In this document: piece by piece, positions 11,675-19,966 of the stretch | How the letters are laid out: each line of letters begins with the position of its first letter | Position numbering within the stretch: position 1 is the first letter of the stretch | Assembly: GCA_965233865.1 (NCBI GenBank) | Contig: OZ247587.1 | Coordinates: forward strand, 544,001-608,000 | From: Candidatus Neptunichlamydia sp. | GTDB lineage: Bacteria; Chlamydiota; Chlamydiia; Chlamydiales; Simkaniaceae | DNA: 64,000 nt | Direction: 5' to 3' | Position numbers and translations under genes: made by a program | Notes under the pieces: model-generated | Told to the model about the DNA's origin: nothing | The model's input: the letters and a program-made list of their open reading frames with translations, nothing else | The model's database searches: none

Positions 11675-12349
11675 TTAGATATTAGATAAGAACACTGCCG
11701 TTGCTTGTGAAACATTGAGGGAATCAATCGATCCTTGCATTGGAATCATCACGTGGAAATCTGAATTTTTTGAAAGCAAAGGCTGTATTCCACTTCCTTC
11801 AGCCCCCATGATTAACAAGGTTTGACTCGGAAATTCAAAAGAAGAAAGACAGTGCGCTCCAGGGGCCACTTCCGCTGCTACCGAGAAATAGCCTCCTGTT
11901 TGGAATTTCTTCAAAGTATCGGCTAAGTTCGATACTGGCATCAAAGGAACGATTTCAGAAGCGCCCACACTTGCTTTACTCACCACAGGGGTCAGAGCTA
12001 CGTTGCGGTTCTTAGAGTAGATCACAGCGTCTACACCAAAACATTCAGCAGCACGGAGGATCGCTCCAAAATTCTGCGGATCATTGATCGAGTCAACCAT
12101 CAAAACAACGCCCTTCTCAGGCGCAGTTTTTAGAAACTCTTTAGGGACTAGAAACTCCCTTTCCTTCACTTCTGCAATGATTCCTTGGTGCGATTCTGAA
12201 CCTGCCATCGCACTAAGCTTCTGCTTTGAAACAACAGTCACGTCGATTCCTAGATGATTCTTTTTTTTATGAGCATAGACTCTAATTAGTCGTTCAGGGT
12301 TTCTCTTTGCCACCTCTTCAATGGCATGTTTCCCCATAATCACTCTCAT
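11675..12349 (-). CDS. rlmB: 23S rRNA (G2251) 2'-O-methyltransferase, TrmH/SpoU family
   Basis: DPQNFGAILRAA, KASVGA, MGAEGSG, IPMQGSIDSLNVSQA. Confidence 0.9.
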   Translation of the reverse strand: MRVIMGKHAIEEVAKRNPERLIRVYAHKKKNHLGIDVTVVSKQKLSAMAGSESHQGIIAEVKEREFLVPKEFLKTAPEKGVVLMVDSINDPQNFGAILRAAECFGVDAVIYSKNRNVALTPVVSKASVGASEIVPLMPVSNLADTLKKFQTGGYFSVAAEVAPGAHCLSSFEFPSQTLLIMGAEGSGIQPLLSKNSDFHVMIPMQGSIDSLNVSQATAVFLSNI

Positions 12350-12765
12350 TGCTTAAACTCACTTTCAATAATAATATTTTTCTTCTGCCCCGAAATCGAG
12401 TAGCGTGTCAAAAATTTATTAGGGTTAACCCAATTCCACTGGAGGAAATATGAATCGCTTTTGCACTTAGCAAGCCCTTTGAGTTCTCCATCAATAATAG
12501 GGAGCCTCATAAAAAGACGCTCATCTTCTTCTTGATAAAAGAAAATCAACACCTGCTCTAGCGTAAAGTGATATCGGTAAAATTTTGTGGCAAACAAGAA
12601 TTCTTCGTGCTGCGTTTCATGACACATTTGTTCCTGGTATAGGAGCTGGTTTTCTTCATAAATATCGAAGAATCCACTCCCCCACATTCTCCCTTTAGAT
12701 GTCCCATCAAAGGCTGAAATGTTCCTCTGTATCCTCCACTTTCCAATCAAATCTTCTTTCTTCAT
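12346..12765 (-). CDS. DUF6314-like hypothetical protein
   Basis: LIGKWRIQRNI...LYQEQ...YRYHF...C..D.Y...ISGQKK pattern; translationally coupled to rlmB. Confidence 0.55.
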   Translation of the reverse strand: MKKEDLIGKWRIQRNISAFDGTSKGRMWGSGFFDIYEENQLLYQEQMCHETQHEEFLFATKFYRYHFTLEQVLIFFYQEEDERLFMRLPIIDGELKGLAKCKSDSYFLQWNWVNPNKFLTRYSISGQKKNIIIESEFKQ

Positions 12766-12872
12766 ATGAAGAGTATAACATCTTTTAGAGGTATAATGGA
12801 AGTTTGATTTGTTGCTAAATAAAAAATTAGATATAAGAGTGTAGATCTAAATTTTAACCCCAAGGCACCTCT

Positions 12873-13055
12873 ATGGAAGTCCTCGTTGTAGTCTCTAAAG
12901 TCAAAAAAATGATTAAGGAAAAATCTGGAATGAACACCTCTTCATCTTCAATGGAGGCTCTAACCCAAATTATTCACAGCGCATGTGAAAAAGCGGTAAG
13001 CAATGCTCAAGCTGACGGGAGAAAAACTGTCATGGATCGCGACTTTGAAGTTTAG
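12873..13055 (+). CDS. Bacterial histone-fold protein (Bd0055/HBb-like singlet histone)
   Basis: MEVLVVVSKVKKMIKEKSGMNTS...LTQIIHSACEKAVSNAQADGRKTVMDRDF: three-helix histone fold with the RKTV...RD signature. Confidence 0.9.
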   Translation: MEVLVVVSKVKKMIKEKSGMNTSSSSMEALTQIIHSACEKAVSNAQADGRKTVMDRDFEV

Positions 13056-13315
13056 GATTTTATTTCTCTTATGTTTTTAAGCCCCTTCTTTTTGCTTCCT
13101 CAATTGCAGGAGCTTCAGGGGGCTACAAAAATGAGGAAGCTTTAATCATTTGCCAATAATAGCTACTACAAAGCTCTCTCTCACCTTAAAATGCTTAAGA
13201 AAGGGCCTTAGCTCTCTGCATGGTTTGACAACCCGCACCACCTTCAACTTTTAAAAACAGAAAACACTGGTAAAATAATTTTTAATCAGAAATAGTTCGA
13301 ATAAAGACTAATTAT

Positions 13316-14104
13316 ATGGTGCTATGTATGAAAAAGGCTCTCATTATTATTTTCGGAATTATTGTTGTTTTAATTCTTGGAGGGATCCTTGTTTGGAATA
13401 TGCTTCCTACAATTGTTTCTCACAAATTATCAAAACAAGCAGGGGTATCTGTTACGATTGGAGGCATTCAAGTTAGCCCATCTACCGTTCGAGTTGACTC
13501 AATTCGTGTGGGAAATCCATCCGAATATAAAAAGACATCTCGTGCTCTTTCAGTAAAAGAATTGGGGATCAATGTTCCACTTACTCGATTCTTTGATGAT
13601 AATATAGTGATTGATGAAATGACAATAGATGATGTTTATGTGGGCCTAGAATTTGATTCTCCCAAAAGTAAGAATGGGAACTGGACAATAATCATGGATA
13701 ATATAAGCAAGTCTGCTAGTGACGAAAAAGATAAGGCAAAGAAAGCAGGAAAATCAACCTCAGTTCTTATTAAAAAGCTAATTATTACAGATCTTAAGAT
13801 TGAGCTTGCCTATAAAACTGGTGGGAAACTCACCCAAAAGCTGCGACCTATTGGTTGGATTGAGCTGACAAATATTAGTAGCGAAGGCGGTATTCCTACC
13901 TCGCAAATCATGAATATCGTTATGCAAGAAACGCTTCGCAATATCTTCAGCACAGAGGGACTTCAAAATATGCTTGAAGGTGTTCTAGATCCAAGCGGTT
14001 CGGGAGAAGGTGTTATGGACTCCATAAAAGGACTCTTCTCTGATGTTATCCTTCTAGATAATGATTGGAAAGATTATGAAGTGGAGTTTGAAGAGGCTCA
14101 ATGA
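13316..14104 (+). CDS. AsmA-like membrane-anchored hypothetical protein
   Basis: N-terminal TM anchor, GVSVTIG...IRVGNP...IVIDEMTID...NW pattern. Confidence 0.6.
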   Translation: MVLCMKKALIIIFGIIVVLILGGILVWNMLPTIVSHKLSKQAGVSVTIGGIQVSPSTVRVDSIRVGNPSEYKKTSRALSVKELGINVPLTRFFDDNIVIDEMTIDDVYVGLEFDSPKSKNGNWTIIMDNISKSASDEKDKAKKAGKSTSVLIKKLIITDLKIELAYKTGGKLTQKLRPIGWIELTNISSEGGIPTSQIMNIVMQETLRNIFSTEGLQNMLEGVLDPSGSGEGVMDSIKGLFSDVILLDNDWKDYEVEFEEAQ

Positions 14105-19642: not shown

Positions 19643-19966
19643 TTAAGCTTCAGTTTTTTTTCTGCGTCTTCTGCGAACTGGCTTAGCTGCAGTTTTCTTA
19701 GCAGTAGTTTTGCGCTTTTTGCGTCGAGTGGTTTTTTTTGAAGCTTTACGCTTAGTAGTTTTCTGCTTAGCTGTAGTTTTGCGTTTTGTAGTCTTCTTAG
19801 CAGCTTTAGCCTTGGTAGGCTTACGCTTAGTAGCTTTTTTTGCTGTAGTTTTTTTGCGTCGAGTTGTTCTCTTAGCAGCTTTACGCTTAGTGGTTTTTCT
19901 AACAGCTTTTTTTCTAGTTGTCTTTTTTCTAGAAGAAGCTGCTTTTTTTCTTCGCTTAGCAGGCAT
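19643..19966 (-). CDS. Histone H1-like basic nucleoid protein (Hc2/HctB-like)
   Basis: 107 aa, almost all K/R/A/T, with repeated KKTTKRK units; AAGGAG RBS upstream. Confidence 0.8.
   Translation of the reverse strand: MPAKRRKKAASSRKKTTRKKAVRKTTKRKAAKRTTRRKKTTAKKATKRKPTKAKAAKKTTKRKTTAKQKTTKRKASKKTTRRKKRKTTAKKTAAKPVRRRRRKKTEA

Follow-up and report, generated by a model that had tools for sequence, protein, structure and literature searches.

The 60-codon open reading frame at 12873..13055 (+ strand) of the 64,000-nucleotide stretch of DNA analyzed here (the window) encodes a protein that clearly belongs, among the alpha3-truncated histones, to the HBb/Bd0055 'bacterial dimer' class. Our results show that the frame is a real gene under purifying selection. 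They point, with a probability that we put at about 0.85, to a nucleoid-associated histone of the HBb class that would act as a homodimer, bind DNA independently of its sequence and bend it locally without wrapping it, as one of a mixed nucleoid set. Published work already covers the family, its occurrence in Chlamydiota and its expression in a single chlamydia; what is new here is one well-supported member together with its genomic context.

Results

Reality and conservation of the gene

The frame opens with ATG, runs for 60 codons and closes with TAG, the stop codon being included in the coordinates given above. Among 5.8 billion protein clusters, a word-indexed search found 69 relatives, 60-74 aa long, at E-values from 3e-26 to 2e-8, and the 67-row alignment of relatives contains 14 invariant positions and 11 more that are at least 90% conserved. 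When the gene was compared with 13 orthologs from genomes of the same family, synonymous differences greatly outnumbered non-synonymous ones. The dN/dS ratio was 0.076-0.149 in eight of these 13 comparisons (0.089-0.149 for the four closest orthologs and 0.076-0.117 for four more distant ones), dS being saturated in the other five, which therefore gave no ratio. The number of relatives, the conservation along the alignment and the low dN/dS together rule out a chance open reading frame. The N-terminal and C-terminal motifs quoted in the preliminary description are present as written, at residues 2-23 and 45-57, respectively. It had also warned that a frame this short is easily missed in annotation; this does not apply here, since the identical protein is present in the NCBI and ENA public collections, where it carries no name, and gene callers had therefore not missed it. 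Four sequencing runs containing the stretch were found, none of them recorded as RNA.

Fold and class of the protein

A phmmer search against all PDB chains gave 10 matches, of which the top two are HBb (8fvx_A, E 5.5e-16; 8cmp_A, E 6.2e-16), while HTkC, an archaeal face-to-face histone (9f2c, 5e-5), HLp of Leptospira (9qt0, 6e-4) and further histones from archaea match more weakly. In the alignment with HBb (8fvx/8cmp), 34 of the 57 aligned residues are identical by our own count. The score of 20.4 bits (E 6.3e-4) against Pfam PF00808 (CBFD_NFYB_HMF) falls narrowly below the gathering threshold of 21.4, and that of 30.9 bits (E 2.8e-7) against NCBIfam NF043032 (archaea_histone) falls below the cut-off of 50. 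Both models are built mainly on longer, nucleosomal-type histones. The depositors of the HBb structures label HBb itself as a CBFD_NFYB_HMF protein.

The AlphaFold2 (AF2) model, obtained with the 67-row alignment, has a pLDDT of 94.9 and consists of alpha1 (residues 6-18), alpha2 (25-47, 23 residues) and an alpha3 of a single turn (55-57). This agrees with the shortened alpha2 and the alpha3 of only 3-4 residues that characterize the bacterial-dimer class. All five of the best Foldseek matches of this model in the PDB are HBb entries (TM 0.82-0.85, E 1e-5 to 6e-5). HLp and HTkC come next with TM 0.78-0.80, nucleosomal histones reach 0.49-0.64, and the TM to archaeal HMfB (1a7w) is only about 0.5. 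The likeness to Bd0055/HBb that had been proposed from the motifs is thus borne out by the sequence search, by the confidence of the model and by the comparison with the Bd0055 structures, which rank first.

Schwab et al. 2024 (PMC11390915) distinguish, among the alpha3-truncated histones, formers of face-to-face (FtF) tetramers, the 'bacterial dimers' typified by HBb, and smaller groups, the bacterial-dimer class being defined through sequence clustering. The same work describes FtF histones as marked by R48 and N52, both of which are missing from the bacterial dimers. In the numbering of the FtF logo these residues lie 6 and 2 positions before the clamp arginine, and the corresponding positions are occupied by N44 and D48 in the window protein and by S and D in HBb. 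The RxTxxxxD clamp itself is formed by R50, T52 and D57 (R50-K51-T52-V-M-D-R-D57), all three invariant in the 67-row alignment. Hu et al. 2024 (PMC11317129) give the main DNA contacts of HBb as N22, R57, S9, T53, T8, S24, K10, K12, K52 and K16. Nine of these 10 are identical here, the pairs (window protein = HBb) being K9=K10, K11=K12, K15=K16, S8=S9, N21=N22, S23=S24, K51=K52, T52=T53 and R56=R57, and the exception is T8, which is V7 in our protein. K9, K11, R50, K51, T52 and R56 do not vary across the 67 relatives. By our own count (K/R minus D/E) the net charge is about +1, below our count for the HBb chain. All sequence and fold features defining the bacterial-dimer class that could be tested are found in the window protein.

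Predicted dimer and proposed mode of action

Prediction of a two-copy complex gave a score of 0.91 in each of three runs versus 0.00 for the best of three controls, a result that may reflect similarity to the already solved HBb dimers and so speaks for resemblance rather than proving binding. The three runs agreed in at least 98% of contacts, with a pLDDT of at least 94. In the calibration of this procedure, a pass was obtained for 20 of 30 solved homo-pairs and for 1 of 23 proteins whose solved structures are single chains. Within the predicted interface L1 pairs with L2 (residues 21-23 with 52-53), as is typical of histone dimers, and residues 2-6 and 9-10 also lie there.

On the basis of this model, two 60-residue chains would associate head to tail into a histone-fold homodimer. 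By analogy with HBb, the dimer would bind DNA without sequence preference, at the minor groove and the backbone, with contacts probably made by the alpha1 lysines K9, K11 and K15, by N21 and S23 of loop L1 and by K51, T52 and R56 of loop L2. It would then bend DNA locally in the manner of HU/IHF, and compaction would be achieved without nucleosome-like tetramers or superhelices. HBb has been reported as a DNA-bending dimer (PMC11317129; PMC11390915) and as abundant, nucleoid-associated and probably essential (PMC10627809). The two published studies of HBb on DNA in vitro conflict, one having it coat straight DNA end-on as a filament and the other having it bend DNA (PMC11390915), so the binding mode assumed here is the later one and is not settled, for HBb as for the window protein. 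Our analysis establishes the homology, fold, class signature, conserved contact residues, selection and distribution of the window histone and predicts its homodimer; that it binds and bends DNA, is abundant or acts in the developmental cycle is inferred.

Genomic neighborhood

The histone gene is divergent from a gene for a 139-aa DUF6314 protein at 12346..12765 (- strand; PF19834, E 5.4e-17), whose stop overlaps by 4 nt the gene for a 224-aa SpoU/RlmB-type rRNA methyltransferase at 11675..12349 (- strand; PF00588, E 2.4e-37; PF08032, E 1.9e-12). The PF19834 and PF00588 matches on the - strand agree with the divergent DUF6314-rlmB arrangement first described for this locus, and 107 nt separate the start codons of the histone and DUF6314 genes. 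The downstream neighbor on the same strand, at 13316..14104 (+), encodes a 262-aa AsmA/DUF748-like protein (PF05359, E 1.7e-14; PF05170, E 1.4e-9). In a comparison restricted to 1.5-kb flanks, the rlmB-type methyltransferase/DUF6314 neighborhood was found at 16 of 19 histone loci of the same family versus 1 of 10 loci of other chlamydial families, and DUF6314 adjoins the histone gene in most same-family loci. In one relative, an inserted kinase-like gene (657 aa) separates DUF6314 from the histone.

Upstream of the gene lies a sigma-70/66-type promoter-like block at 12809..12837 (+ strand), made of TTGTTG (12809-12814), a 17-nt spacer and TATAAG (12832-12837), and a putative ribosome-binding site, AAGG, was read at 12862..12865 (+), 7 nt before the ATG. 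The position of the block is conserved across 15 aligned upstream regions of the same family, where the relatives have TTGATT-17-TATAAA/G, and the same 15 regions carry AAGG, AAAGG or GAAGG at the ribosome-binding position. A consensus promoter scan found no + strand promoter in 12766-12872; the block has 8 of 12 matches, which is below the threshold. Its conservation suggests that the TTGTTG-17-TATAAG block and the AAGG serve as promoter and ribosome-binding site of the histone gene.

Between the histone and the AsmA-like gene, close relatives have an intact uridine-kinase-like gene (243-aa ORF) and an outer-membrane-protein-like gene (340 aa). When the intact genes of one such relative (L035) were used as tblastn queries, remnants of both were recovered in the spacer at 13056..13315 (+ strand). 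The kinase remnants lie at 13076-13132 and 13122-13256 in differing frames and cover, with these frame shifts, the codons for about residues 26-106, and the outer-membrane-protein remnant at 13192-13251 corresponds to the final 20 codons. The 260-nt spacer is the scar of a two-gene deletion and not a designed terminator region. No intact copy of the uridine-kinase-like gene was found elsewhere in the genome. A consensus scan found no terminator 3' of the histone gene. A hairpin at about 13080-13124 was considered as a candidate and dropped, being no better than shuffles (z -0.61) and aligning as leftover coding sequence of the lost uridine-kinase gene. The suggestion that the gene is monocistronic is therefore favored on its upstream side, by the conserved promoter-like block and ribosome-binding site, but not on its downstream side, where the scan gave no terminator and the spacer is a deletion scar. 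Transcription may read through from the histone into the AsmA-like gene at 13316. No Rfam family reached its gathering score anywhere in the window.

Distribution in the phylum and beyond

At E <= 0.001 an HBb-type gene was present in 93 of the 401 genomes of the phylum, and in 72 of the 335 that are at least 90% complete, a survey that answers the call for a search across Chlamydiota. The gene occurs in all 14 other genomes of its own genus, once as a 25-residue fragment at a contig end, and in 30 of 34 genomes of its own family. Three large families had none (0/23, 0/30 and 0/46), and two others had it in 19 of 69 and 9 of 90 genomes. The family without hits among 30 genomes comprises what we presume, from genome size, to be Chlamydiaceae (1.0-1.4 Mb, most genomes being in one or two contigs), searched with the protein query at E <= 0.001; a profile search likewise gave none in the 29 genomes that were scored, one remaining unscored. 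For these presumed Chlamydiaceae, the contrast drawn in the preliminary description is supported.

The genome is chlamydial, as the first reading of the window had it: in a scan of species-representative genomes, the closest named relative is a Simkaniaceae bacterium whose histone is 93% identical and whose flanking genes are the same, with insertions between them. Other close relatives are labeled Simkania sp., Chlamydiales and Chlamydiia. The family is also common outside the phylum, at least 541 genomic stretches in species-representative genomes encoding a relative, and HBb-type relatives are common in Bdellovibrionota, Planctomycetota and Myxococcota. Among 1.84 billion representatives at 50% identity, 536 match at E <= 1e-3, the top scorers being tandem doublets and longer fusions.

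In a maximum-likelihood tree of 110 rows and 62 columns, 22 rows of the same family form a supported clade (SH-aLRT 94), and chlamydial labels cluster, with 7 changes versus 34.9 when shuffled. Such a pattern fits vertical inheritance of the histone within the family. Since 51 of the 95 inner branches are unresolved, the tree does not separate ancestral presence followed by losses from transfers.

Other nucleoid proteins and a second histone

The window lies on a single contig of 1,830,388 bp, and the genome encodes several further candidate nucleoid proteins. A homolog of Hc1/HctA scores 58.3 bits with PF07432, above the cut-off, and 76.7 bits with the NCBIfam HctA model, below its cut-off of 100. 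Two proteins belong to the HU/IHF family. Within the window, at 19643..19966 (- strand) and 6.6 kb from the histone gene, a composition scan found a candidate nucleoid protein of 107 aa that is lysine/arginine-rich (35% K), repetitive with short repeats, and Hc2-like by composition, with no NCBIfam match. This protein recurs in 12 of 13 other genomes of the genus, its open frame measuring 93-224 aa and lying about 5-10 kb away from the histone gene; in one relative within the family (G060) the distance is about 19 kb. By our own estimate the genome has at least six candidate nucleoid proteins, the window histone included; the others can be counted as four or five. The presence of Hc1, the Hc2-like protein and the two HU/IHF proteins means that dominance of the nucleoid by the histone is not implied.

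A second histone-fold gene was found by sequence similarity outside the window (G000:C1:718002-718205, - strand). Its 68-aa product is 37% identical to the window histone and carries an N-terminal lysine-rich tail of about 10 residues. The best PDB match is HLp (E 5.4e-8), with HBb close behind (6.4e-7), and the face-to-face signature is present as R54 and N58, invariant in 28 sequences. A profile-profile comparison matched the paralog to the HBb-type family with a probability of 97.5%. Its monomer model is mediocre (pLDDT 71.0), and Foldseek gave no match at E <= 0.001 with it, HLp chains coming top at E 0.3-0.6, so the assignment as a histone is made from sequence. We therefore describe the paralog as a probable histone with an HLp-type face-to-face tetramer signature. 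The search gave clear orthologs (E <= 3e-22) for 12 of the 35 genomes in its own family, the source genome included, and for 0 of the 366 other genomes of the phylum sample, where the weaker matches of the query hit the HBb-type gene. In 11 of the 12 the tail contains four or more lysines. The word-indexed search returned only 27 relatives of the paralog, all at least 71% identical, and those with names are Simkaniaceae or Chlamydiota. Bacterial FtF histones are reported often to carry positively charged tails (PMC11390915), and neither that study nor the HLp paper (PMC12701072) names Chlamydiota among the FtF-predominant phyla. Lying outside the window, the tailed HLp-like paralog is a modest addition to the main finding.

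Discussion

The preliminary description had gone beyond the identity of the protein and attributed true core-histone-fold chromatin to its organism, which would require the window protein to build DNA-wrapping particles resembling nucleosomes or hypernucleosomes. The window protein does share with nucleosomal histones a histone fold with the RxTxxxxD clamp, and the related alpha3 histone HLp wraps about 60 bp as a tetramer (PMC12701072). However, the AF2 model has a one-turn alpha3 and a short alpha2, the face-to-face residues R48 and N52 are replaced by N44 and D48, TM scores to nucleosomal histones are only 0.49-0.64, and, according to Schwab et al., confident multimers of this class do not go beyond the dimer (PMC11390915). 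Any wrapping of DNA in this organism would be better sought in the tailed paralog, which has both the R and the N. For a protein of the alpha3-truncated dimer class, in a genome that also encodes Hc1, Hc2-like and HU/IHF proteins, the claim of core-histone chromatin overreaches, and we regard wrapping by the window protein as highly improbable.

That the fold serves as a scaffold with a function other than DNA binding, for example as an adaptor between proteins like the TAF or CENP folds, is a possibility that Hocher et al. raise for bacterial histone folds in general (PMC10627809). The near-neutral charge of the window protein (own count) and its weak Pfam matches to CENP-S (E 0.067) would agree with it, but identity at nine of the 10 HBb DNA-contact residues and the invariance of K9, K11, R50, K51, T52 and R56 in 67 relatives form the pattern expected of a conserved DNA surface, and no neighboring gene is conserved beside the histone outside the family, all of which makes a scaffold role very unlikely. 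The same invariant residues bear on whether the protein could be secreted to mimic host histones and act on host chromatin. The group of the source bacterium consists of obligate intracellular bacteria of eukaryotes, and there are chlamydial proteins that reach the host nucleus, such as NUE (PMC2904774) and Wcw_0377 (PMC6426960). Still, the same protein with the same invariant residues is common in Bdellovibrionota, Planctomycetota and Myxococcota, none of which lives inside eukaryotic cells. Moreover, no N-terminal segment is free for secretion, residues 2-6 and 9-10 lying in the predicted interface and alpha1 starting at residue 6, and the fold is the prokaryotic alpha3-truncated one, unlike that of eukaryotic histones. 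An effector of this kind is thus extremely improbable, and our preferred reading is the nucleoid-associated HBb-class dimer, which would work as one member of a mixed set with Hc1, the Hc2-like protein, two HU/IHF proteins and the tailed face-to-face-type histone.

The textbook account of chlamydial development, in which the H1-like proteins Hc1 and Hc2 condense the nucleoid, was worked out entirely in Chlamydiaceae. The apparent absence of the HBb-type histone from the presumed Chlamydiaceae and its presence elsewhere in the phylum mean that the nucleoid biology of environmental chlamydiae may differ from that of the model species. An HBb-type histone occurs in roughly one in four of the genomes sampled across the phylum, and one family adds the tailed HLp-like paralog. 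The caution that chlamydial cases may already be known proved justified. Schwab et al. 2024 (PMC11390915) and Hu et al. 2024 (PMC11317129) both list Chlamydiota among the phyla with bacterial-dimer histones, the HLp paper (PMC12701072) aligns D6YWW1 of Waddlia chondrophila and F8L7X8 of Simkania negevensis, and Hocher et al. 2023 report histone-fold proteins of W. chondrophila as highly expressed (PMC10627809, Fig. 6a). The full-text literature that was searched contained no paper devoted to a chlamydial histone-fold protein and no biochemical or developmental-cycle study of those of Waddlia or Simkania. The main text of Beder and Saluz 2018 (PMC6090853) discusses hctA and hctB and not a histone-fold gene, and the supplementary files of the Waddlia heparin-binding proteome (PMC6426960) contain none of the terms 'histone', 'D6YWW1', 'CBFD' or 'Hc1'. 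Simkania and Waddlia are cultivable relatives in which a bacterial histone could be studied beside H1-like condensers.

The more interesting question is how two histone types coexist with H1-like proteins in one chlamydial family. A composite chromatin of the Simkaniaceae type could be imagined, in which an HBb-type dimer and a tailed HLp-like tetramer histone work with Hc1/Hc2, different members dominate in the replicating and the infectious forms, and the histones have been lost in the reduced genomes of Chlamydiaceae. We consider this proposal unlikely as it stands; if true, it would be a bacterial parallel to the 'core plus linker' organisation of histones.

Comparison with known systems

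HBb/Bd0055 (8fvx, 8fw7, 8cmp, 9ezz, 9f0e) is the closest known system. Both proteins have about 60 aa and no tails and are encoded by a stand-alone gene, and they have in common the fold (TM 0.82-0.85), the clamp, the alpha1 lysines, nine of 10 contact residues and the lack of R48/N52, the window protein being a predicted homodimer. They differ in their setting, since HBb belongs to a predator and the window histone to an intracellular chlamydia with Hc1/Hc2-type proteins, and in detail, T8 of HBb being V7 here and the net charge of the window protein being lower by our own count. The rlmB-DUF6314/AsmA-like gene neighborhood is specific to this chlamydial family. D6YWW1 of Waddlia chondrophila and F8L7X8 of Simkania negevensis come from the same phylum, and Simkania shares the NCBI family name of the closest relatives; both are cited here by accession, and each may be of either the HBb-like or the tailed type.

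HLp of Leptospira perolatii (9qt0-9qt2) and HTkC (9f2c) have the same alpha3-truncated fold (TM 0.78-0.80) and the same RxTxxxxD clamp, but they form stable tetramers through R48/N52 and wrap about 60 bp, and in the window protein these two residues are replaced by N and D. With archaeal HMfB (1a7w) and the eukaryotic core histones it has the handshake dimer and the RD clamp in common, while these have a longer alpha2, an alpha3 of about 10 residues and a four-helix-bundle contact that leads to tetramers and superhelices. Hc1 (HctA) and Hc2 (HctB) are, like the window protein, small basic nucleoid proteins of chlamydiae. They are nevertheless lysine/alanine-rich and H1-like, have no histone fold and no similarity to the window protein, and are of unrelated origin.

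Candidate nucleoid proteins beyond the histone gene

A lysine-rich ORF of 107 aa (35% lysine, with short K/R/T/A repeats) lies in the window at 19643-19966 on the minus strand; it matched no NCBIfam family, and its composition marks it as a candidate Hc2-like protein. Of the genus's 13 other genomes, 12 retain it, as open frames spanning 93-224 aa; there the distance to the histone gene is about 5-10 kb, against about 19 kb in one relative from the family. Outside the window, a 93-aa ORF with 30% lysine (G000:C1:517106-517387, minus strand of the same contig) is K-rich in its N-terminal two-thirds, followed by a short C-terminal segment without repeats, and may encode a further small DNA-binding protein.

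Surroundings of the histone gene

The spacer downstream of the histone gene (window 13056-13315) is a deletion scar in which a uridine-kinase-like gene survives as pieces in shifted frames and an outer-membrane-protein-like gene as its last 20 codons. Close relatives carry both genes intact (L035:3131-4877 in the closest named relative, a Simkaniaceae bacterium). No intact copy of the uridine-kinase-like gene was found elsewhere in the organism's own genome. In this closest named relative, a protein-kinase-like ORF of 657 aa (L035:692-2665, minus strand) is inserted between the DUF6314 and histone genes, and it has no counterpart in the window. An Rfam scan of window 1-64000 returned no family at gathering score, tRNA included.

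Other histone-fold proteins

The top-scoring representatives of the exhaustive search, P0112-P0130 (98-274 aa), contain two matched stretches each and are tandem doublets of the HBb-type fold. N-terminal extensions of 40-150 residues are present in many of the other matches. A second histone-fold gene, coding for 68 aa with an N-terminal tail rich in lysine, is found outside the window (G000:C1:718002-718205, minus strand; locus L002:1498-1704 / L115). Clear orthologues were detected in 12 of 35 genomes of its own family in the phylum sample, and in none of the remaining 366. Chlamydiota are not named by Schwab (PMC11390915) or the HLp paper (PMC12701072) among the phyla where face-to-face (FtF) histones predominate; the R and N residues of the FtF, HLp-type tetramer are both present in the 68-aa protein.
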